Shown here one piece after another: positions 1 through 19,731 of a stretch of 43,113 nt of DNA. A program made the position numbers and the translations under genes. Origin of the DNA: a virus (Duplodnaviria > Caudoviricetes); the IMG/VR virus record IMGVR_UViG_3300017565_000026, positions 1 through 43,113 of that record; one strand, written 5' to 3'. Below the pieces are notes generated by a model. That model saw only the letters and a program-made list of their open reading frames with translations. It was not told where the DNA came from and made no database searches. Position 1 is the first letter of the stretch. The number at the start of each line of letters is the position of its first letter.

Positions 1-40
1 GTCCGGCCCCTCAAAGGCCCAAACTTTCGACCGCCCCCCT
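1..40. other. Genome end, half of the putative cos packaging region
   Basis: On the - strand it reads ...AGGGGGGCGGTCGAAAGTTTGGGCC...GGCCGGAC. It lies after the HNH gene and, on circularisation, before terS, the usual cos position in HK97-like phages. Confidence 0.55.
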
Positions 41-3582: not shown

Positions 3583-3926
3583 TCTGCACCTCGCCACTCG
3601 ACAACATGCAGACCGAGATAGTGGGCAAGCGACAGCTCAATCCCCGCACCCTTCGATGTTTTCCAGCCCGAAAGCAGCACGATCGTATCGGCGCACTGGC
3701 ATAGAAATGCGCAATGCGCGGCCATCGCATCCCGAATGGGATACTCTTCCATTGGGCCATCAAATGGGAATTCAGCCGGGTTGTAGACGTAATGGCCGCT
3801 CGCCCGTAGTTCGCGAGCGACACGGTGAAACGCCGGATAATTGAATTCCGGTAGACCCGTCATTGGACCGGATAAATAGATGGTTTTTCCGCGCTCGCCC
3901 GCGCGCACTGGCGGACAGCCTGTCAT
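3579..3926 (-). CDS. DUF4406 / nucleoside 2-deoxyribosyltransferase-like protein
   Basis: IYLSGPMTGLPEFNYPAF..YNPAE..CADTIVLLSGWKTSKGAGIELSLA signature. Confidence 0.8.
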   Translation of the reverse strand: MTGCPPVRAGERGKTIYLSGPMTGLPEFNYPAFHRVARELRASGHYVYNPAEFPFDGPMEEYPIRDAMAAHCAFLCQCADTIVLLSGWKTSKGAGIELSLAHYLGLHVVEWRGAE

Positions 3927-5935: not shown

Positions 5936-6131
5936 GACCAACCACCTTTCCAGCACGAAGGCGCGAGCCACCTTCGACGGTGACCCGCGCTATCGCATCT
6001 GCTTTTTCAGGATATCGATTGAGGATCCGGCGCGACCTGTCGCAACCATAACGACCGACTGCCTGCCGCCAGCACATAACGCCGACATCACCATCGATGA
6101 TCAGGAATTTCATGCGCCAGCCAGCGATCAT
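5928..6131 (-). CDS. Small hypothetical protein
   Basis: 67 aa, overlaps both neighbours in operon fashion. Confidence 0.45.
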
Positions 6132-6604
6132 GCCCCTGCCTCCAGTCGGCGGACAAGATCGTCCATTACGCGCATAAGTTCGCGAGCTTCCTTGCCGATG
6201 TTCTTGCGCTCGGCGGCATCGATGCGGTTATCCGTCAGGGCTTCGATGATCGCCTGCGAAACATCCATCCCCTCTTTCATGATGCGCATCGCATCTTTTT
6301 CGGAAATAGGGACAGGCGACGCCGCGACACCGCTGCGAATGCCGACCGGCACCAGCTCGTAACCGAGGAGCGCAGCCATTTCCTTCGTAATCGTCGGCGA
6401 CTTGGCGGCGCGGTCAATCTCGATCGCCACGTCGATCGGCGCGAAACTGTCGGTGTTGTCCTCGCCGAAAGACGCGTACTTCGAAAGCTGCGAGGTTGAG
6501 ACACGAGTAAAGTCCAGAATGCGGGAAATGCCACCCGACAACACATATGCACCGTCGGTTGCAGCCTTAAGAGTCCGGCGTTCCGGCTCGGAAATAGTGC
6601 GCAA
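6128..6604 (-). CDS. Phage CII-like regulatory protein
   Basis: Downstream of cro; LKAATD..GG..VSTSQLSKYAS..FAPIDVA and EALTDNRIDAAER..KEAREL pattern of the phage CII family. Confidence 0.65.
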   Translation of the reverse strand: MRTISEPERRTLKAATDGAYVLSGGISRILDFTRVSTSQLSKYASFGEDNTDSFAPIDVAIEIDRAAKSPTITKEMAALLGYELVPVGIRSGVAASPVPISEKDAMRIMKEGMDVSQAIIEALTDNRIDAAERKNIGKEARELMRVMDDLVRRLEAGA

Positions 6605-6733
6605 GAGAACCTCCCTGAAACGTCAAGGAAAAATTTCGGTCAAAGGATTCGGTGAATTTCGCCAGCCCTACCGATAGGACTGTCTGGTCAAGTCAAACAG
6701 GTGGCCCGCAGGCCGGAGAACAACGAGATGAAT

Positions 6734-7204
6734 TCATCGCAAGCCCTCCGAAATTGCTGCCGGGGCGCATCTGGCGTCTCTCAAACCGTGCGCCCCGGCG
6801 CTTCCGTCCGACTGGGAGGAGGAATCGGACGAATGGAAACTGGTTGCAGGGACCGGAATCGAACCGGCGACCTCCGGGGTATGAACCCGGTGAGCTACCT
6901 CTGCTCTACCCTGCTCAGAAATAGCTGGAGCGCCGCTGGGGTTAGCGGGGGGCGACGACGCTCCAGCCTCACCCGCAGAGGAACCGACGGGCGAAAAATG
7001 CGGCTTTCCAAATACGTCAGGTCGCAGCAGGTGGCGGGAAATACCCGTCAAACGCTCCACATCAAGAACCCTCTCAGGCGGCACAACGAACCACTGGTTC
7101 ACCGCCTGCGGTGTGATGCAAAGCGAACGCGCCAAGGAACTGGCACCCCTTGCCCGGTCTTTAGCGGCCTCAAGGGCCATATGCATTTCGTCTCTGTCAG
7201 CCAT
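6734..7204 (-). CDS. cro: Cro-like / YdaS-family HTH regulator with long low-complexity C-terminal extension
   Basis: GASSLARSLCITPQAVNQWFVVPPERVLDVERLTGISRHLLRPDVFG; divergent from cI. The extension overlaps a tRNA and hairpins. Confidence 0.85.
   Translation of the reverse strand: MADRDEMHMALEAAKDRARGASSLARSLCITPQAVNQWFVVPPERVLDVERLTGISRHLLRPDVFGKPHFSPVGSSAGEAGASSPPANPSGAPAISEQGRAEVAHRVHTPEVAGSIPVPATSFHSSDSSSQSDGSAGAHGLRDARCAPAAISEGLR
6802..6838 (-). ncRNA. Cuckoo-type hairpin with CCUCCUCCC anti-SD loop
   Basis: The - strand reads CGUCCGAUU-CCUCCUCCC-AGUCGGACG, a 9 bp stem with the loop at 6814-6822. Confidence 0.6.
6841..6915 (-). tRNA. tRNA-Met(CAT), initiator-like
   Basis: Full cloverleaf: AGCAGGG TA GAGC AGAGGTA GCTC A CCGGG TTCATAC CCCGG AGGTC GCCGG TTCGATT CCGGT CCCTGCA A CCA. 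Unpaired 1:72 (A/A), three G:C pairs closing the anticodon stem, encoded CCA. Confidence 0.9.
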
Positions 7205-7214
7205 GCGCCGTTTT

Positions 7215-7250
7215 AAAGCATAGCTTTCATTGCAATGCAAGGGATACTTA
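7215..7250. promoter_or_regulatory. Operator pair between cro and cI (OR-like)
   Basis: AAAGCATAGCTTT (7215-7227) and CAAGGGATACTTA (7238-7250); matching pair with the same 10 nt gap at 8330-8365. Confidence 0.7.
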
Positions 7251-7251
7251 A

Positions 7252-7983
7252 ATGGACGAATTTATCCACATTGAGTCACATCCCATTATGGATGAGACAC
7301 AACTATCGCAAAAAATTGGCTTAGCCCTTCGCACCGCACGGAAACAGCGCGGGCTTGTTATGCGCGACATTGCGGCAGCCGCTGGCGTTAGCACTGGCGC
7401 AGTCGGCAACTGGGAACGTGGCGCGAACGTCATGTCGATGGAGAATCTTCAAGCGGTTGCATCCTTCCTCGACATTGACCCAATTGCATTGAGCAAGGGA
7501 ACCGTTCGTTACCTGTCCAATCAGAGCGATGTTTCGGATGCGGAAATCGTATCCGACATGACCCACATTGATACCGGCCCACTCGATGTGGAGATACTGG
7601 GCGTAGCCGTAGGCGGCGATGATGGCGACTTCACCTTAAATGGAGAAGTCGCAGGTTATGCTCGCCGACCGGCTGGCATCGCTCATCTGAGAAAAGTGTT
7701 TGCACTTCATGTACTTAGTGACAGCATGGAACCGCGATACGAGCCGGGAGAACTGCTATATTGCGGCGGACGTGACGCGGTGGCTGGTGATGATGTCGTT
7801 ATAGAGACCTTTCCTGCAGAGGGCGAAACAGTAGGAAAAGCCTATATTAAACGCCTTGTTAAACGGTCGAAAACTGAAATTATTTGCAAGCAATACAACC
7901 CTGCTAAGGAACTGGTTTTCGACCCCTACGCTATCAAGAATATGTGGCGAGTGATACCTACGCGCGAGCTTCTCGGCTATTGA
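7252..7983 (+). CDS. cI: CI-like repressor (XRE HTH + S24 autopeptidase); start may be 7288
   Basis: HTH IAAAAGVSTGAVGNWERG; S24 Ser motif SDSMEP and Lys motif YIKRL. Confidence 0.92.
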   Translation: MDEFIHIESHPIMDETQLSQKIGLALRTARKQRGLVMRDIAAAAGVSTGAVGNWERGANVMSMENLQAVASFLDIDPIALSKGTVRYLSNQSDVSDAEIVSDMTHIDTGPLDVEILGVAVGGDDGDFTLNGEVAGYARRPAGIAHLRKVFALHVLSDSMEPRYEPGELLYCGGRDAVAGDDVVIETFPAEGETVGKAYIKRLVKRSKTEIICKQYNPAKELVFDPYAIKNMWRVIPTRELLGY

Positions 7984-8644: not shown

Positions 8645-8798
8645 TGAAGTCCAATTCCACACCGAGGCGGGGTTTTCTCTGCCCGCAAACTACAAGATCG
8701 AAGATCGAGAAACGACATTTCGCATCATGCTGATTGTCTTCGGATGCTGCTTTGCGGCTGGCACCGTACTCGGGTTGCAGATGGCGGGGTTGATATGA
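8637..8798 (+). CDS. Small membrane protein
   Basis: MRDEVQFH..IMLIVFGCCFAAGTVLGLQMAGLI hydrophobic C-terminus; overlaps both neighbours. Confidence 0.5.
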   Translation: MRDEVQFHTEAGFSLPANYKIEDRETTFRIMLIVFGCCFAAGTVLGLQMAGLI

Positions 8799-9928
8799 CT
8801 GGACCGACCGCCATCAGATTCACCATCGAACGGCGCGCACTGCTTCCGGCCTTGTCGGCTGTCAACCGCGCCGTGGAAAAGCGAAACACGATACCTATTC
8901 TCGGCAATGTGTTAATAAAATCGGAAGAAGGTTATCTGACGATCACCGGCACTAATCTCGATATCGAGGTTAAGTCTCGAGCCAGGCAGACCGGCATACC
9001 CGACTTCCCACCATTTACGGTTCCTTCCGCTCTCCTACATGCTGCGGTCAGTAAGTTTCCGGACGGTTGCGAAATCGAGTTCACTGTCGACAGCGCTGCG
9101 GTCACCATTCGGGCCGGACGATCGCGACTTCAGTTGCCGCTTTTACCAGCGAAAGACTTCCCGGCAATGAGTGAAGGCGATTTCACTCATCAATTCGCGA
9201 TGACGAGCAACGATCTGTCACGGGCCATATCCACTGTTGGATTTGCCGTTTCAACAGAAGAAACCCGATACTATCTCAATGGCATATTTATGCACCGCGA
9301 TCAGGACCAGTTGGCATTTGTAGCCACTGACGGGCATCAATTCGCTTATATGAAGATTTCTGCGCCAGAAGGCAGTAGTGATATTCCGGGAGTGATTATC
9401 CCTCGCGGTGTGCTCACGTTGCTCGCCCACTGCGCCAAAGTCGATGGTGAAGTTGCATTCTGTCTGTCAGATCGCAAGATCCGCACTGCATTTCCCGATG
9501 GGGTGACTGTCACGTCGAAACTTGTCGACGGCACCTACCCGGATTATCGACGCATCATTCCTTCCGGACATGACAAGACATACAGCGTTGACCGCGAGGC
9601 ACTGCTTGCCGCCGTTGGTCGTGTGAGCCTGGTGGTGCCGGAGAAATCTGATGCTGTCAGGTTCACTTTTGGATCTGAAGACGTGCGTCTGGAGATCAAT
9701 AATCCAGAAGCCGGTCATATGGAGGATGCTGTCACTCTTTCCGATAGCCATCCAGAAGATACCGTCATCGGCCTAAGCTATCGATATTGCACCAACGTGT
9801 TGAGCGCCACAGATGCGAGCGAGATGCGCTTTTCGCTCAACGATCCCACGAGTCCATGCCTTGTCTCACCAGTAATGGATCCAGAGGCTGGAGATCCTCC
9901 CCTTTTTCTCATTATGCCAATGCGTTGA
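8795..9928 (+). CDS. dnaN: DNA polymerase III beta sliding clamp
   Basis: AVEKRNTIPILGNVLI, TGTNLDIE, STEETRYYLNGI, VATDGH, SKLVDGTYPDYRRIIP, LIMPMR; full three-domain length. Confidence 0.95.
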   Translation: MTGPTAIRFTIERRALLPALSAVNRAVEKRNTIPILGNVLIKSEEGYLTITGTNLDIEVKSRARQTGIPDFPPFTVPSALLHAAVSKFPDGCEIEFTVDSAAVTIRAGRSRLQLPLLPAKDFPAMSEGDFTHQFAMTSNDLSRAISTVGFAVSTEETRYYLNGIFMHRDQDQLAFVATDGHQFAYMKISAPEGSSDIPGVIIPRGVLTLLAHCAKVDGEVAFCLSDRKIRTAFPDGVTVTSKLVDGTYPDYRRIIPSGHDKTYSVDREALLAAVGRVSLVVPEKSDAVRFTFGSEDVRLEINNPEAGHMEDAVTLSDSHPEDTVIGLSYRYCTNVLSATDASEMRFSLNDPTSPCLVSPVMDPEAGDPPLFLIMPMR

Positions 9929-13177: not shown

Positions 13178-13371
13178 AGTTGGAACTCGAAAATTATCGA
13201 GTTGGAACTTTCGCAATTTGATGGAGCTAAGCTATTGAAAAGGTGGCGATCCCGACAGGATTCGAACCTGTGACCATCGGCTTAGAAGGCGGTAACATAC
13301 TCAGCAATTACAGCAGTAGTTCCAACTTTTGAAGGGCGCTCGCGGCCCCTAAAATGGCAAGAGTTGGAACT
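13178..13371. repeat. Integrase arm-type sites of attP
   Basis: AGTTGGAACT at 13178-13187, 13200-13209 and 13362-13371, and inverted at 13318-13327, flanking the core. Confidence 0.8.
13244..13290 (-). mobile_element. attP core, 3' half of tRNA-Arg(TCT)
   Basis: The - strand reads GCCTTCTAAGCCGATGGTCACAGGTTCGAATCCTGTCGGGATCGCCA: anticodon loop, T arm and CCA, with no 5' half. Confidence 0.88.
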
Positions 13372-13480: not shown

Positions 13481-14101
13481 TTAGGGAAGTATCTGACCGC
13501 GATGCTGGAAGGCTATATGTGCATAACCATTCGCGGTCCCGTCTTCCCGAATGTAGTCGTCGAGTTCAAGCTCCTCCCCATCAAGATATTCGAGGACTTT
13601 CTCGCGATCCTTGCGTAATTCAGGGTGATTTAATTGGAGCACATCAATCATTACCTCTGCAGCTAGATCGCCAAGTACTGAAGGCACAACTTCGCCGCTC
13701 CGCCGAAACGAGAAACGCGAGGTACATGCGGCATAGATCGGCTCGACATGATTATTCTCATCGAACCAATCATCCTTGACATTGCCACAGGTTGGAGATG
13801 GCGCGCCGTGGGCGTCGCGCTGACCACAACTTAGGAACAGATTATTGTACTCCACTTGGAGTTCAGGAAAGGTAGCCCTGGGTCGGAAATGCTCAATATG
13901 AAACGTCTGCCCAGGGTAGGACAAATCAAGTCGACGTCCGCAGTACACACACAATCCTCGCTGCTCACGAAAAAACTCGCAAACCAATGCTTTTCTTACA
14001 TTCTTATCGAGATTCCTGTATGTGGGCCGCCAATCCTCATTCTCATCACCCAGCCAACTAATAAATTCAGCTGGCGCGGCTTCTTTACGACTGCCCTTCA
14101 T
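13481..14101 (-). CDS. ptuB: PtuB-like HNH nuclease (TIGR02646-type)
   Basis: EQRGLCVYCGRR..HIEHFRPR..YNNLFLSC..CGNVK..IDVLQLN; directly after an ABC ATPase. Confidence 0.8.
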   Translation of the reverse strand: MKGSRKEAAPAEFISWLGDENEDWRPTYRNLDKNVRKALVCEFFREQRGLCVYCGRRLDLSYPGQTFHIEHFRPRATFPELQVEYNNLFLSCGQRDAHGAPSPTCGNVKDDWFDENNHVEPIYAACTSRFSFRRSGEVVPSVLGDLAAEVMIDVLQLNHPELRKDREKVLEYLDGEELELDDYIREDGTANGYAHIAFQHRGQILP

Positions 14102-14103
14102 TT

Positions 14104-15354
14104 CTAACCCCTGAGTTTTTTAAGACGCTTCATCAAAAGCAACAACTCAGGCGGGTCACCTTCAATTTGCTTCTTAATCTGCTCAAACAACAACTCAGCG
14201 TGATCCAAGTTCTTGGTATCTATTGCATCGTTAAATCTGTCAATTAGACGGTCGCTCTCCGGGAAGCGCTCATGAGCACCAAATACGCCTTCTAACAAGT
14301 AGTTACTGGTTTGCCCTTTTGTTTTTAAAGGTATCTTTACTTCATGCCCCCCGTCTTCATTTCTTTCCAATATACGAACATGCTCTCGTTCTATCGATGA
14401 TATTACTTGTGGAGAATGTGTTGTTATTATAAATTGGCATTCCTTGAATACACGGCGCAATGTAACAAGAATTTTACTTTGCCATTCCGGATGGAGGTTC
14501 AGTTCAATTTCATCTATTAATACGATACCTGGTATATCGCTCAACGAAGCGTCTGGCTTCATTAACTGAAGCCGTCGCGCTAAGTCTGCCAGAAGTATAA
14601 TGAAAGATCGCTCCCCCGAGGAAAGCATGCTGACATGAACAGACGATCCGTCCTGCTTGTCAAAATAGAGTCCCACTGGATTGCGTGTCGAGGAATAAGT
14701 GACGCGTTTGAAGCCGTCAATCTCAGTGATGAGTTTTCTTATCGCCTCCAGTTGAGGATCTCTGAATTCTCTATCTAGGTCTCGTACGGTTCTAGCTTCC
14801 TGGGCGTCGTGTCTATCCCACCAAGATTCCAAATGACTAATAGCTTTAAGCTCGCCCTGCAGCGACGTTATGATAGTGGCTTTTTTGTCAACTAGTTCAC
14901 CCGACATACCGCCATTGTTTTCAAACCCTCTGTCCTGTCGATAGTATACCATCAAAGGTCGTTCGACCTTTGCAAAGCCACCACTGTAAGCAGTATTGAA
15001 GAAGTTCAAAAGATCCGGGTTTTCATGCAAACCTTGATGCTCTGAATAGAGGTTTAATTTTTCCGGGAACCCAATTCCTTTAAATTCGCCCCAATTTACT
15101 TTGATGCTGATAAAAGTCGCCTGATCAGGCCGCTTCTTATCTGTTGCGGGGATCCTTGTATCCGGCCCCATCGGCTCAAACTCGTCAGAGCGCCAGGAGA
15201 ATTGTATTACTCTTAACAGGGTGGCGGCGGCATCAAGGACAGAAGACTTGCCTACACCGTTTCGCCCCACAATAATGGTGAGGTCGTGATTGAACTCTAA
15301 GGCTAGCCTGTCAATCCCGCGATAATTTTCAAGGTAGAGCCTATCAATTTTCAT
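14104..15354 (-). CDS. ptuA: PtuA-like ABC ATPase (Septu-type defence)
   Basis: Walker A GRNGVGKS, signature LSSGERS, Walker B IVLIDEIELNLHPEWQ, QFIITTHSP; visibly AT-richer than the flanks. Confidence 0.8.
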   Translation of the reverse strand: MKIDRLYLENYRGIDRLALEFNHDLTIIVGRNGVGKSSVLDAAATLLRVIQFSWRSDEFEPMGPDTRIPATDKKRPDQATFISIKVNWGEFKGIGFPEKLNLYSEHQGLHENPDLLNFFNTAYSGGFAKVERPLMVYYRQDRGFENNGGMSGELVDKKATIITSLQGELKAISHLESWWDRHDAQEARTVRDLDREFRDPQLEAIRKLITEIDGFKRVTYSSTRNPVGLYFDKQDGSSVHVSMLSSGERSFIILLADLARRLQLMKPDASLSDIPGIVLIDEIELNLHPEWQSKILVTLRRVFKECQFIITTHSPQVISSIEREHVRILERNEDGGHEVKIPLKTKGQTSNYLLEGVFGAHERFPESDRLIDRFNDAIDTKNLDHAELLFEQIKKQIEGDPPELLLLMKRLKKLRG

Positions 15355-15687: not shown

Positions 15688-15768
15688 TTACTCCCACTGA
15701 GAGGAATATGTTCCTGAGCGCCCCTGCACTCGGGCGCGGTTCCGCGCATTCTGATTTTGGAGCGTGTC

Positions 15769-17043
15769 TTGCGCCTTCCTGAGACTATCGAGCGTCTGTA
15801 CCTCGACTTTGACGGCTTCTTCGCGAGCGTCGAACAGCAATGCGATCGCCGCCTACGCGGTCGGCCAATCGGCGTTGTTCCCTTCGAAGGGACAGACCGC
15901 ACAGCAGTCATCGCCTGCTCAAAAGAGGCGAAGGATTTCGGCGTAAAAAACGTTATGCCTATCAAGGAAGCAAAACGGCTCTGCCCAGACCTTATCCTGG
16001 TCCCCCAGAAACCCGACCTTTACAGGCGCGCTCATAACGCGCTGCTCTGCGAGATCGAGACCGTCATCGCCATCGACACGGCCAAGAGCATCGATGAACT
16101 GACGTGCGTGCTGGACGACAGCGGCAAGCGAGATCCTGAGCTACTGGCAGCTAGAATCAGAGCCGCGATTTCGGAGAACATCGGCCCCTACATCACCTGC
16201 TCGATCGGTTTCGCGGCCAACCGGCAGCTGGCGAAAATAGCCTGCAAAGCAGGGAAGGAAGAGACAAAGCGTCGAGGCGCTTACGGAAACGGATTGGCAA
16301 TTTGGTGGCCCGCTATCATGCCGGACCCGCTGTTGCGCGTCGAACTGGAGGACATACCCGGCGTTGGATCTAATATGGCGAAGCGGCTTTATCGCAATGG
16401 CGTGTTCACAACCACCCAGCTTTACGCTCTGCAGCCGAAACACATGCGCAAGATCTGGAACAGCGTCAACGGTGAACGACTTTGGTATGCCTTGCACGGC
16501 TACGATATCCAGGCGCCAGCGCAGCAGCGTGGCATGTTCGGCCATGGTCGCGTTCTGCCACCAGAAGCCCGGTCGATCAGCGGTGCCTATGAAATCTCCC
16601 GCCTTCTGCTGACCAAAGCCGCCCGTCGCCTTCGCCGGGAAAACTTCTATGCAGCTGGCCTCTGGCTTTGGCTATCGGTGCGCGACGGTTCATGGTTCGG
16701 CAAACACTATCTGCCGGTCGTGAACGATGACCAAGCTATTCTGTCGGCTCTGCGCTTGCTCTGGAAGCGCGTGCGCGACGATCATCCGCGAGGTGTAACC
16801 ATCTTCCGCGTCGGCGTGACGCTCTATGATTTGTCACCAGCTGGCGAACGGCAGATGGACATGCTGAATAATGACGATGCAGTGCGCCAAAAATGGGAAA
16901 AGGCAAACAACGCCGTCGATACGCTAAATACCAAGTATTCCGGCACCATCGTCAGTATGGGCGAGTGGAAGCCGCCAACTGGCGGGCACGTCGGCGGTAA
17001 GATCAGTTACACTCGCATCCCGTCGGCTGAGGATTTCTGGTGA
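15769..17043 (+). CDS. Y-family translesion DNA polymerase (DinB/UmuC superfamily)
   Basis: YLDFDGFFASVEQ, SIDE, SIGFAANRQLAKIA, DIPGVG; clamp-binding-like QMDML. TTG start has a GGAG RBS. Confidence 0.92.
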   Translation: MRLPETIERLYLDFDGFFASVEQQCDRRLRGRPIGVVPFEGTDRTAVIACSKEAKDFGVKNVMPIKEAKRLCPDLILVPQKPDLYRRAHNALLCEIETVIAIDTAKSIDELTCVLDDSGKRDPELLAARIRAAISENIGPYITCSIGFAANRQLAKIACKAGKEETKRRGAYGNGLAIWWPAIMPDPLLRVELEDIPGVGSNMAKRLYRNGVFTTTQLYALQPKHMRKIWNSVNGERLWYALHGYDIQAPAQQRGMFGHGRVLPPEARSISGAYEISRLLLTKAARRLRRENFYAAGLWLWLSVRDGSWFGKHYLPVVNDDQAILSALRLLWKRVRDDHPRGVTIFRVGVTLYDLSPAGERQMDMLNNDDAVRQKWEKANNAVDTLNTKYSGTIVSMGEWKPPTGGHVGGKISYTRIPSAEDFW

Positions 17044-17297
17044 TGGGCAATTGGAAATCGACAATCAAGGTCCGCGATCTGGACGATGAGCAGCGGCTTG
17101 AACTGACCTGCAAAAAATGCGGACGCGTGACCTACGCAACAAAGCAGCTGCTTTGCGAGGGAACCGATCGTTCACAAAAATATCTGGACGAGATCGAAGC
17201 GAAGGTCCGCTGCAAGGCGCGCGGCTGCCACGGGCACATGCGCATGGCAATGGTTCGCCTGCAGGAAATGAGCGGCTTTGTCGGAGGGCTGGCATAA
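17043..17297 (+). CDS. Small Zn-ribbon protein coupled to the polymerase
   Basis: TGATG overlap with the pol stop; LELTCKKCGR..RCKARGCHG. Confidence 0.75.
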   Translation: MGNWKSTIKVRDLDDEQRLELTCKKCGRVTYATKQLLCEGTDRSQKYLDEIEAKVRCKARGCHGHMRMAMVRLQEMSGFVGGLA

Positions 17298-17312
17298 ACA
17301 CCTAAAAGCAAA

Positions 17313-17340
17313 AGCCCGTCAGCTAACCGGCTGGCGGGCT
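17313..17340. terminator. Hairpin closing the polymerase operon
   Basis: AGCCCGTCAGC-TAACCG-GCTGGCGGGCT; A-tract upstream, no clear U-tract on +. Confidence 0.5.
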
Positions 17341-17443
17341 CAATATTCTGCGGCGCCGCGTTACGTAACACTAATTGATAAAATTTTGCTTTTTAGCGAT
17401 CGCTAATAAGGTAGAGTTACGCCTTTAGTATAAGGAGGCTGAC

Positions 17444-17725
17444 ATGCCGTTTTTCAACGAAGCGAGCCGAATATATACGCCTGTCGAAGTCGATTTCTTA
17501 CGCAGCTGTTTCACGAATGCAGCCGTCCTCCTCGAAGAAAGCGACCGCGATTATTCGGCCAGTGAACTCTCATCCTGCGTTATGAGGCTATACGAGCATG
17601 GATTGCGTGATTGCAATCATCTCTGCGAGCTCGCCGCCCGGCTTGCCCATCAGAAGTATGCAGTTCGAAATCACATGCCCGCATTGGAAGCCAACTCGAA
17701 CGATGCCGAGGGAACCTTTTCCTAA
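17444..17725 (+). CDS. Small hypothetical protein
   Basis: 93 aa with strong TAAGGAGG RBS and AT-rich upstream region. Confidence 0.75.
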   Translation: MPFFNEASRIYTPVEVDFLRSCFTNAAVLLEESDRDYSASELSSCVMRLYEHGLRDCNHLCELAARLAHQKYAVRNHMPALEANSNDAEGTFS

Positions 17726-17863
17726 GCGCGCGGTTTGGAGCCCCTGGTGTCAGTGACCGTTTTCCAAGCTCGGAAGCTGCGCCTACCCTGCACCGTCATG
17801 TGGGGTGCCCTTATGGGGGACGGGGACGGCGCGAGGTGCCCCCACTGACCACTACCTTGCGCA

Positions 17864-17903
17864 GCCCCGGCGACCTCAAAAGGCGCCGGGGTTTCGCGTT
17901 TTT
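17864..17903 (+). terminator. Rho-independent terminator
   Basis: GCCCCGGCG..CGCCGGGGT stem followed by TTCGCGTTTTT. Confidence 0.65.
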
Positions 17904-17917
17904 CGCAAGAACAAAAA

Positions 17918-17989
17918 TGATTCGCATACACCGGAACGAATCAAAGAGTGATTCGTTCGGACTCGGTTGAAAGTGATTCGGATGAATCG
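17918..17989 (+). promoter_or_regulatory. ku promoter region: EcfG/RpoE2-type promoter overlapping a GANTC cluster
   Basis: GGAAC(17933-37)-N16-CGTT(17954-57); GANTC at 17919, 17938, 17950, 17960, 17975 and 17984. Confidence 0.65.
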
Positions 17990-18015
17990 CTTTAGTTGTG
18001 CCAGGAGTATGCGAG

Positions 18016-18906
18016 ATGGTTGCACCAAGAGCGAATTGGAAGGGCTATATCAAGTTCGGAGAGGTTTCTTGTCCAGTAGCTTTGTACACCGCCGCGTCTA
18101 CTTCCGAGCGGATTTCATTTCACACAATCAACCGCAAAACCGGCAACCGGGTCAGAAGAGAATTCGTCGACAGTCAGACCGGCAAACCCGTTGAACGTGA
18201 AGATCAGGTCAAGGGATACGAAGTGGATGATCACCGATACGTGGTTCTTGAGCCCGATGAGGTAGCCGCCGCGATCCCCGAAAGCGACAAGACCTTGCAG
18301 ATCGAAGCCTTTATCCCATGCGACCAGGTTGATACTGCTTATTTCGACAAGCCCTACTATCTCGCTCCCGATAAGATGGGCACGGAGGCGTTCGTCCTGC
18401 TTCGTGATGGCATGAGGAAGGCCAAGGTGGCCGCCATAGCGCGCACCGTTTTATTCCGCCGCATGCGAACGGTGCTTATCCGTGCCCACGGAAAGGGGCT
18501 GACCGCTTCCACGCTCAATTTCGATTACGAGGTGCGTTCTGCTCAAAAGGCTTTCGATGATGTGCCGGATATCAAGATTGAAGGCGAAATGCTGGAGCTA
18601 GCGGAACACATCATCGGCACCAAGGCTGGCGAATTTGACGCCAGCAAATTTGACGACCGATATGAGGAGGCTGTGGCCGAGCTGGTCAAGGCAAAGATCG
18701 AAGGTAGAACCCTTCCTAAGAAAAAGGCGCCCGTCGCGTCCAAGCCGAGCGATTTGCTGCAGGCTCTCCGCGAAAGTGCCGGTCTTGGCGCCGCGAAGAC
18801 GAAGCGCACGGCAGCTAATGCGGATCGTGCCCCAGCTCGAAGAAAGGCAGCCAAAGCTGCCACAAATTCCAGAAAGTCTGCTTCCCCCACGAGACGGGCA
18901 AGTTAA
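18016..18906 (+). CDS. ku: Ku protein (NHEJ end-binding), copy 1, with basic tail
   Basis: PRANWKGYIKFGEVSCPVALY, VKGYE, YFDKPYYLAP, FDDRYEEAV, DLLQALRES. Confidence 0.95.
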   Translation: MVAPRANWKGYIKFGEVSCPVALYTAASTSERISFHTINRKTGNRVRREFVDSQTGKPVEREDQVKGYEVDDHRYVVLEPDEVAAAIPESDKTLQIEAFIPCDQVDTAYFDKPYYLAPDKMGTEAFVLLRDGMRKAKVAAIARTVLFRRMRTVLIRAHGKGLTASTLNFDYEVRSAQKAFDDVPDIKIEGEMLELAEHIIGTKAGEFDASKFDDRYEEAVAELVKAKIEGRTLPKKKAPVASKPSDLLQALRESAGLGAAKTKRTAANADRAPARRKAAKAATNSRKSASPTRRAS

Positions 18907-18918
18907 GGAAAATTTGAG

Positions 18919-19731
18919 ATGGCCGTTCGTCCATACTGGAAGGGATACCTGAAGCTCTCGCTTGTCACCTGCCCTGTCGAAATGATGCCCGCGACTTCGG
19001 AAAGTGAGAAGGTCCGCTTTCACACCTTAAACCGACAGACCCAAAACCGCGTTATCAGTCACTATGTCGACGCGGTGACCGGCAAGGAAGTCAGGGAGGG
19101 AGATGAGGCCAAAGGCTACGAGCGAGGAGAAGGTGAATATGTTCTCCTCGAAGAGGAAGAACTGGAGAATGTTGCGCTCGACAGTACCAAGACGATCGAC
19201 GTTGAAATGTTCTCGCCTCGTGAAAGCATCGGGTGGATTTGGCTCGACACCCCCTACTATCTGTCTCCTAGCGATCCCGTCGGCGAGGAAGCTTTCGCGG
19301 TTATTCGCGAGGCTATGAAAGCTGAGAACAAGGTTGGCATATCGAGGTTGGTGCTGTCTCGGCGTGAACGGGCCGTTATGCTTGAGCCGCGCGGCAAAGG
19401 GATAGTTCTCTGGACACTGCGCTACGGCGACGAAGTGCGTGACGAAGACCTCTATTTTGAAAGGATTGGCGAGGAGAAGGCCGATCCGGACGCACTGCCG
19501 CTGATAGAAAAGTTCATAAAAAAGCAAACCAGGGACTGGAAGCCCGACCTGGTCCACGACCCGGTTCAGGAGCGCCTGCTTGACATCATCGCAGCCAAAA
19601 AGAAGACACTAAAAAAGCCGACGAAAGCAAAGCCGAAAGCGTCCGACGCCGAACCGCAACGTGGTAACGTGATCAACATCATGGACGCTTTGCGGAATTC
19701 GTTGAAGAACGAGACTCGAAAGTCGAAGTGA
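18919..19731 (+). CDS. ku: Ku protein, copy 2
   Basis: RPYWKGYLKLSLVTCPV, KGYE, DTPYYLSP, TLRYGDEVR, NVINIMDALRNSL. Confidence 0.95.
   Translation: MAVRPYWKGYLKLSLVTCPVEMMPATSESEKVRFHTLNRQTQNRVISHYVDAVTGKEVREGDEAKGYERGEGEYVLLEEEELENVALDSTKTIDVEMFSPRESIGWIWLDTPYYLSPSDPVGEEAFAVIREAMKAENKVGISRLVLSRRERAVMLEPRGKGIVLWTLRYGDEVRDEDLYFERIGEEKADPDALPLIEKFIKKQTRDWKPDLVHDPVQERLLDIIAAKKKTLKKPTKAKPKASDAEPQRGNVINIMDALRNSLKNETRKSK

Follow-up and report, generated by a model that had tools for sequence, protein, structure and literature searches.

An initiator-type tRNA nested in frame within the cro reading frame of a lambdoid phage control region

Introduction

The closest described counterpart of the arrangement treated here is selC, the gene of tRNA-Sec, which is nested in the selB open reading frame (ORF) of Alphaproteobacteria and which was presented by its authors as the first bacterial report of this kind (Mukai 2021, PMC8124441). 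As in the present locus, a whole sense-strand tRNA with a length that is a multiple of 3 is located in a C-terminal extension, the stop of the ORF overlaps the next start, and an either-or expression by means of tRNA processing was proposed in that work. In contrast with selB-selC, where SelB and tRNA-Sec are functionally tied, the tRNA studied here is accompanied by Cro or by an unrelated small ORF, and these partners are interchangeable, including at least seven Cro families or coupled ORFs. Moreover, the tRNA here is of the initiator type, belongs to phages, lies in a lysis-lysogeny operon inside a hairpin array, and is optional.

Two further systems show partial likeness. Genes for tRNA-Met/fMet(CAU) have been reported in rhizobial prophages of the phiLM21-like type, which resemble the present case in carrying a single CAU tRNA, in being temperate Rhizobiales phages, and in that this tRNA is distinct from the integration-site tRNA; the available part of that account gives neither the position relative to cro nor any nesting (PMC12429752). 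The cuckoo or alpha-r14 sRNAs of Brucellaceae and Rhizobiaceae (Rfam RF02344) are built from hairpins with CCUCCUCCC loops, and one such hairpin also occurs here; the members described in the accessible text are intergenic sRNAs with 2-4 motif hairpins, whereas the array discussed below lies inside a translated ORF and is split by a tRNA (PMC4615179).

Within the main texts of the open-licence PMC and bioRxiv literature, nothing on point concerning a nested phage tRNA or such a cro arrangement was found apart from Mukai 2021. On the comparison of sequences, the novelty lies in the initiator type of the tRNA, in its location in a lysis-lysogeny operon and in a frame that is preserved across interchangeable host genes; the same RNA appears to be both message and tRNA. 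The single published bacterial case that was found, selB-selC, is thereby joined by one that involves an initiator tRNA and host genes that can be exchanged. Annotation pipelines usually drop either the tRNA or the ORF when the two overlap, and the comparison indicates that both are kept by selection; meanwhile, the odd "Cro" proteins of 130-210 aa in the databases would be explained as RNA structure read as peptide, and the locus offers a natural test of the competition between translation and RNase P on one transcript.

The Control Region

The DNA studied is a virus record of 43,113 bases, which as a whole is termed the window and which contains one lambdoid control region. The phage is temperate and lambdoid, and its phage and host group is probably Brucella/Ochrobactrum, as judged from a single named homologue (P0033) together with one record from Rhizobiaceae (L282). 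A cI-like repressor gene with HTH_3 and peptidase S24 domains (7252..7983, + strand; Pfam and PHROGs) is divergent from the cro ORF (6734..7204, - strand), which encodes 156 aa from its ATG and is composed of a YdaS/Cro helix-turn-helix domain (about aa 1-67) and a disordered tail of ~90 aa, as assigned by Pfam, PHROGs and pLDDT; the Pfam match itself comprises aa 18-67 (E 2e-12). This tail covers four hairpins and the tRNA. Sequence and translation further reveal a 14-codon ORF (6693..6737, - strand), the ATG of which overlaps the cro stop as ATGA and is preceded by a GGAGGG Shine-Dalgarno-like stretch. The cII-like activator gene (6128..6604, - strand; Pfam and PHROGs) possesses a GGGAGG ribosome-binding site within its own 9-bp hairpin (window 6610-6631, - strand). 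No match to a sigma-70 promoter was obtained within 6550-7400, and the two terminator-like sites are within chance.

Small ORFs 5' of cII often end in GPP or CGPP codons shortly before the stop, as at window 6693-6712 (- strand) and in L543, L544, L081, L518 and L536. This ending is found in phages with and without the tRNA, which suggests that a DNA or RNA element at some distance ahead of cII is conserved.

Sampling of Loci and Controls

Loci were gathered by DNA pattern, by blastn or by cII, and 333 distinct initiator-like CAT tRNA loci were extracted. Forty-seven of these are context loci, defined by local profiles blind to frame as having a divergent cI-like gene on the upstream side or a cII-like gene on the downstream side, and 286 are non-context loci, of which 189 had enough flank for scoring and were employed as controls (28 at GC>=0.52 and 161 below). 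Protein searches yielded 63 matches, many of them Cro-like proteins with the same tail, which were left out of the frame count because such searches find only read-through cases; every one of the 47 counted loci was recovered by DNA searches, whether or not a protein search had found it as well. With the tRNA pattern, 2 of 401 genomes were positive family-wide and 14 of 43 scored genomes in the genus.

Several properties of this sample determine how the counts are to be read. The invariance of G30/G31, the acceptor end and CCA carries no weight, as these are largely fixed by the search patterns and the filter, and conservation of the anticodon is without evidential value because the anticodon was fixed by the search. 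The 47 loci are related, and the independent events are by our estimate nearer to seven Cro families, ~10 coupled junctions and ~10 indels. Some upstream ORFs are called Cro by position only, and those of L372, L391 and L409 have no Pfam match.

Identity of the tRNA

An intact initiator-type tRNA-Met had been described within the cro ORF in an earlier note on this DNA, and this identity is borne out by the present analysis. The tRNA-Met(CAU) of 75 nt, including an encoded CCA, occupies 6841..6915 on the - strand, where it is in frame as cro codons; it is the sole gene call of ARAGORN in the window at the default threshold, and it scores 61 bits against Rfam RF00005 (gathering score 29, E 6e-11), and every pair of the cloverleaf apart from 1:72 is standard. 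Its bases include A1/A72, G2:C71, C3:G70, A11:U24, A73 and the CCA, its anticodon stem is G29:C41/G30:C40/G31:C39, and its anticodon loop is UUCAUAC. The cro frame translates the tRNA as QGRAEVAHRVHTPEVAGSIPVPAT, with the anticodon read as a His codon, and TAG triplets inside the tRNA interrupt both remaining sense frames.

The determinants of the formylase are an unpaired 1:72, G2:C71 and C3:G70 (PMC5389676), all of which are present in the window tRNA. Among 30 distinct tRNA variants, 1:72 is unpaired in 25 and U:A in 5, and seven show a second mismatch at 2:71 in the register used here. A purine at position 11 facing a pyrimidine at position 24 is a feature of initiator tRNAs, and it is kept in 30/30 variants (A:U in 23, G:C in 7). 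Both tRNA-Ile2 and elongator tRNA-Met have a paired 1:72 and a pyrimidine 11 with a purine 24, and these identities are ruled out by the A1/A72 mismatch and A11:U24.

The three G:C pairs of the anticodon stem, which the earlier note had counted among the initiator features, are present in the window (29-31:39-41) but do not hold as a constant of the family, as 29:41 is G:C in only 17 of the 47 context loci and U:A in the other 30. A presumed host initiator (L348), taken from a genome in the genus of G001, carries A29:U41, which is a rhizobial initiator variant, and G30 is the key base (PMC5389676). The U29:A41 pair is absent among the natural variants named in the accessible portion of that paper, and the initiation efficiency of tRNAs with this pair is therefore uncertain.

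Reading Frame across the tRNA

That the tRNA is nested in the cro ORF without an intervening stop was likewise claimed before, and the arrangement proves to be kept far beyond the window. At the window locus alone, the flanks are stop-free in the fixed frame in 41% of 5000 dinucleotide shuffles (p=0.41), an open frame that is not above chance, and the case for nesting is accordingly a comparative one. This value is also what speaks for an annotation artefact, in which Cro would have lost its stop and the GC-rich hairpins would be stop-free by accident. The cro-type frame is open across the tRNA in 47/47 context loci; over the tRNA itself, an open frame is common in the controls too, with 25/28 of the GC-rich and 113/161 of the GC-poor ones, so that the upstream link, rather than the open frame itself, is the discriminating property.

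After two truncated loci were dropped, this link could be evaluated in 45 of the 47 context loci, where it was classed by hand: 31 are fused to the ORF in the Cro position, 13 start at an ATGA/GTGA overlap, and one (L368) has its own start. Long or coupled ORFs were encountered in 4/28 controls at GC>=0.52 and in 4/161 below, one of which, L499, has a YdaS gene upstream. The fused Cro domains fall into at least seven clusters at 45% identity (29 of the 31 being clustered), and in L372 and L409 foreign sequence separates cro from the tRNA, which is nevertheless spanned by a series of overlapping ORFs. Moreover, the stop of the ORF overlaps or abuts an ATG or GTG in 40/47 context loci versus 48/235 controls, the junction in the window being ATGA. 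Hairpin 1 is separated from the tRNA by 57, 60, 63, 69 or 72 nt. When 27 modules were aligned without regard to codons, the length of each of the 15 internal gap runs was a multiple of 3; as some of these share one origin, the number of independent gaps is put at about ten, for which the odds of such an outcome are estimated to be near 1 in 50,000. A chance ORF is rejected on these comparative counts, and with the same frame in every Cro family and coupled junction, with all gaps in multiples of 3 and with the frequent stop/start overlap, an artefact is regarded as highly improbable. The comparison supports the reading that the cloverleaf and its flanking hairpins are under selection for pairing, and that the frame has survived the exchange of Cro domains, indels and the insertion of genes.

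The cultured Mesorhizobium phage vB_MseS-P1 has the same arrangement, with the tRNA inside gp13 and coupled to the gp12 repressor gene, which makes it directly testable.

Some related loci were observed alongside. The contig of run X1 matches the tail up to window 6996, with gaps totalling 12 nt, and continues with different sequence, which we read as another Cro family and which would mark the point of a module swap. Four sequencing runs were compared, all represented by contigs, and three of them are marked as probably DNA. The same tRNA type is also seen in L386 and L045, phages without a detected cI or cII, where it lies at the beginning of an ORF that either overlaps the preceding ORF or begins shortly behind it. 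Outside the cro context, Ochrobactrum phage POI1126 and a Brucella pseudintermedia plasmid (L083 and L085, each at 2501-2575) carry a related tRNA-Met with an identical loop; in both, it overlaps the end of a small annotated gene by ~10 nt.

The Hairpin Array and the Tail Peptide

All four hairpins are located on the - strand. Hairpin 1 (6972..6991), with UUCCUCU in its loop, is the start of the conserved module that is joined to differing Cro domains, and 98% of its cells are paired, with one-sided changes only. Hairpin 2 (6924..6967) possesses an 11-bp stem and a C-rich loop of variable length, and is 99.6% paired with two pairs changing on both sides. Just past the CCA, hairpin 3 (6804..6832) displays the CCUCCUCCC loop, which is of the anti-Shine-Dalgarno and cuckoo-like type (91% paired, one pair changing on both sides), and hairpin 4 (6759..6799) again has an 11-bp stem (96% paired, four such pairs). 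Over 21 aligned modules, pairing holds in 97.4% of the cells, and both partners have changed in 13 of the 55 pairs, seven of which lie in the flanking hairpins; none of 500 shuffles reaches this level, a test in which related sequences can beat shuffles, and slid controls are 39-45% paired. The stems of the tRNA itself covary among the 30 distinct sequences at 7:66, 11:24, 13:22, 27:43, 28:42, 29:41 and 50:64-52:62.

Cuckoo-type motifs are represented in the array by one full copy, namely the CCUCCUCCC loop of hairpin 3, and one partial copy in hairpin 1. Membership in ar14 was rejected, as the Rfam model gives only a weak match, at hairpin 3, of 20 bits against a gathering score of 58.8 (E 0.21); with a score so far below the threshold, the array resembles cuckoo/ar14 without being a member. 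Hairpin 3 presents CCUCCC in its loop (window 6814-6822, - strand), to which the GGGAGG of cII is complementary, a match of 6 bp only that may be due to chance.

A conserved, covarying array that resembles cuckoo/ar14 modules raises the thought that the cloverleaf is not used in translation at all, and would instead be an RNase P processing signal that releases the C-rich hairpins as small regulatory RNAs, or a decoy for a toxin. The complementarity to the cII site, the U29:A41 pair of many loci and the second mismatch at 2:71 would all be in keeping with such a role. Nevertheless, the compensatory changes in the acceptor, D, anticodon and T stems, together with the invariant purine 11 and pyrimidine 24, go beyond the needs of a bare cleavage signal, and the hairpins persist in relatives without the tRNA, so that we consider this explanation improbable.

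The peptide encoded by the same stretch was assessed by pN/pS in 10 YdaS-type loci, where the counts are small: the Cro domain gives 0.08 and the tRNA 1.59, while the hairpins give 0.32 on the 5' side (10 synonymous and 8 non-synonymous changes) and 0.58 on the 3' side. Over the 30 distinct tRNAs the value is 1.26. Given the small counts and the 0.32 of the 5' hairpins, some constraint on the peptide is possible. The AlphaFold model of the cro ORF has a pLDDT above 82 for aa 1-70 and of ~41-52 beyond, with less than 50 in most of the tail. Selection acting on RNA pairing and on the open frame, and hardly on the peptide, with a disordered tail, is thus the reading supported by the comparison. 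A frame kept for the sake of a functional tail peptide, be it a linker, a degron or an interaction site, could draw on the pN/pS of 0.6 in the tail, on the lower value in the 5' hairpins and on the presence of the tail on at least seven Cro families; against it stand the low pLDDT, the change of amino acids along with RNA covariation, the 13 loci with the tRNA in a separate ORF, and the fact that a segment of 25 codons can be lost. Only a very slight probability is assigned to this proposal.

The tRNA as an Optional Cassette

The tRNA is missing from L349 and L350, although both retain a Cro domain, the hairpin array, an open tail and a terminal ATGA. The proteins P0008 and P0025 are otherwise 78% identical, and one is longer than the other by 25 residues, as many as the tRNA has codons. 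The tRNA was found in 7/7 close relatives by cII and in 1/24 cII loci order-wide, and the cultured phages phi3LM21, Nsp-JY10 and AmM-1, which have a related cII, show no tRNA in the region examined. Poorly conserved ORFs coupled by ATGA are found in many, though not all, tRNA-less cro-cII intervals (e.g. L516, L526, L532, L533, L536 and L543). By sequence, then, the tRNA is an optional cassette of 75 nt (25 codons) in a translated array of C-rich hairpins; its optional nature, the array and the exchange of Cro domains all go beyond the earlier note. As the tRNA-less relatives keep open or coupled ORFs, ribosome cover looks like a property of the operon that the tRNA had to respect, and the frame needs no cause specific to the tRNA.

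On release by RNase P and 3' trimming, a tRNA embedded in an mRNA leaves behind an upstream fragment without a stop codon and a downstream message that is detached, and its folding is prevented by ribosomes that cross it. Our preferred explanation, which we hold to be rather likely, is that a working initiator tRNA is carried as a passenger cassette in the cro-cII early transcript of temperate alphaproteobacterial phages, in frame in the coupling tail. The tRNA would then sit where ribosomes cross, which is the 3' tail of cro in some lineages and a small ORF coupled to the cro stop in others. The frame would be maintained because ribosomes can then cover the hairpins and move on to the next gene, by way of translational coupling and protection from Rho polarity. 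Folding of the tRNA and its excision by RNase P and 3' trimming would take place only on transcripts that are not being translated at that time. Each tRNA released would leave a non-stop cro fragment, which is a substrate of tmRNA, and a detached downstream message, which means that the cro-cII message would have to be cut for the tRNA to be released. The product may supplement initiation at the early lytic stage, perhaps at times when initiator tRNA of the host runs short.

The Anticodon Loop and a Possible Switch

The canonical initiator loop has C32 and A38, which form a Cm32-A38 pair in the initiator tRNA of E. coli (PMC2528185), whereas the UUCAUAC loop of the window, with U32 and C38, alters both bases of this 32:38 pair. 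UUCAUAC is found in 35/47 context loci versus 16/286 other loci and 0/120 of a genome-contig set, the last of which came from a pattern scan that gave mostly unrelated host tRNAs and was used only as a loop reference; the canonical CUCAUAA is retained in 12/47 context loci. This enrichment may reflect shared descent. Evasion of anticodon nucleases by the altered loop, as suggested in the earlier note, is a plausible hypothesis. An alphaproteobacterial VapC that targets tRNA-fMet exists (PMC8522696). Phage tRNAs with nuclease-evading changes in the anticodon loop have been described, in which the loop differs from that of the host beside the stem-loop junction, as it does here (PMC10264068). 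According to the accessible text of that study, phages generally avoid encoding tRNA-fMet where VapC-LT2 targets it (PMC10264068); in the literature covered, no assay of a U32/C38 loop was found.

The loop is one of the reasons to ask whether the nesting might itself be a device of the lysis-lysogeny switch. Excision would limit Cro through a non-stop mRNA and tmRNA tagging and would uncouple cII; because excision needs a ribosome-free transcript, it would moreover sense stalled translation, for example when the host initiator tRNA is lost to a toxin, and would answer with an initiator of altered loop. Besides the change of both bases at 32:38 and the existence of a suitable VapC, this idea gains from the recurrence of the tRNA between cro and cII in phages of several lineages and from the same either-or model having been proposed for selB-selC. 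It is weakened by the open tails and coupled ORF chains that occur without the tRNA (L349, L350 and the tRNA-less intervals named above), by the rarity of the tRNA among order-wide cII loci, by the canonical loop in about a quarter of the context loci, and by the definition of context, which itself selects the cro-cII position. A switch of this kind is therefore judged unlikely. A more elaborate version, to which we give still less credence, is a translation-gated valve for the release of the tRNA: translation of the tail would yield Cro and lead translation on towards cII, and when initiation fails, as after cleavage of tRNA-fMet by a toxin, the tail would fold, RNase P would free a nuclease-resistant initiator and the anti-Shine-Dalgarno hairpin RNAs, and the truncated cro message would be tagged for destruction. 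If such a valve existed, one cut would restore initiation and reset the balance of Cro and CII.

Other Features of the Window

Behind a putative integrase ORF, which has no Pfam or PHROGs match, lies the 3' half of a tRNA with the anticodon TCT (Arg) at 13243-13291, as read from the sequence alone. Given this tRNA-Arg(TCT) half, the Met tRNA can be dismissed as the att core, in agreement with what had been proposed earlier; a role as an attP/attB fragment was rejected for the Met tRNA, which is whole and ~4.9 kb away from the integrase ORF.

A poor tRNA-Ala call in a coding region (3663-3759, - strand) was returned by ARAGORN at a lowered threshold only, was absent at the default and in Rfam, and is probably false. 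Behind the att core, an HNH-like ORF and an ATPase-like ORF (13481-15354, - strand), which by resemblance we take to be a defence-type pair, and ORFs that are presumably Y-family polymerase-like and Ku-like (15757-19731, + strand) make up what is assumed to be cargo. In addition, a full DNA polymerase III beta clamp with all three Pfam domains is encoded at window 8744-9928 (+ strand).
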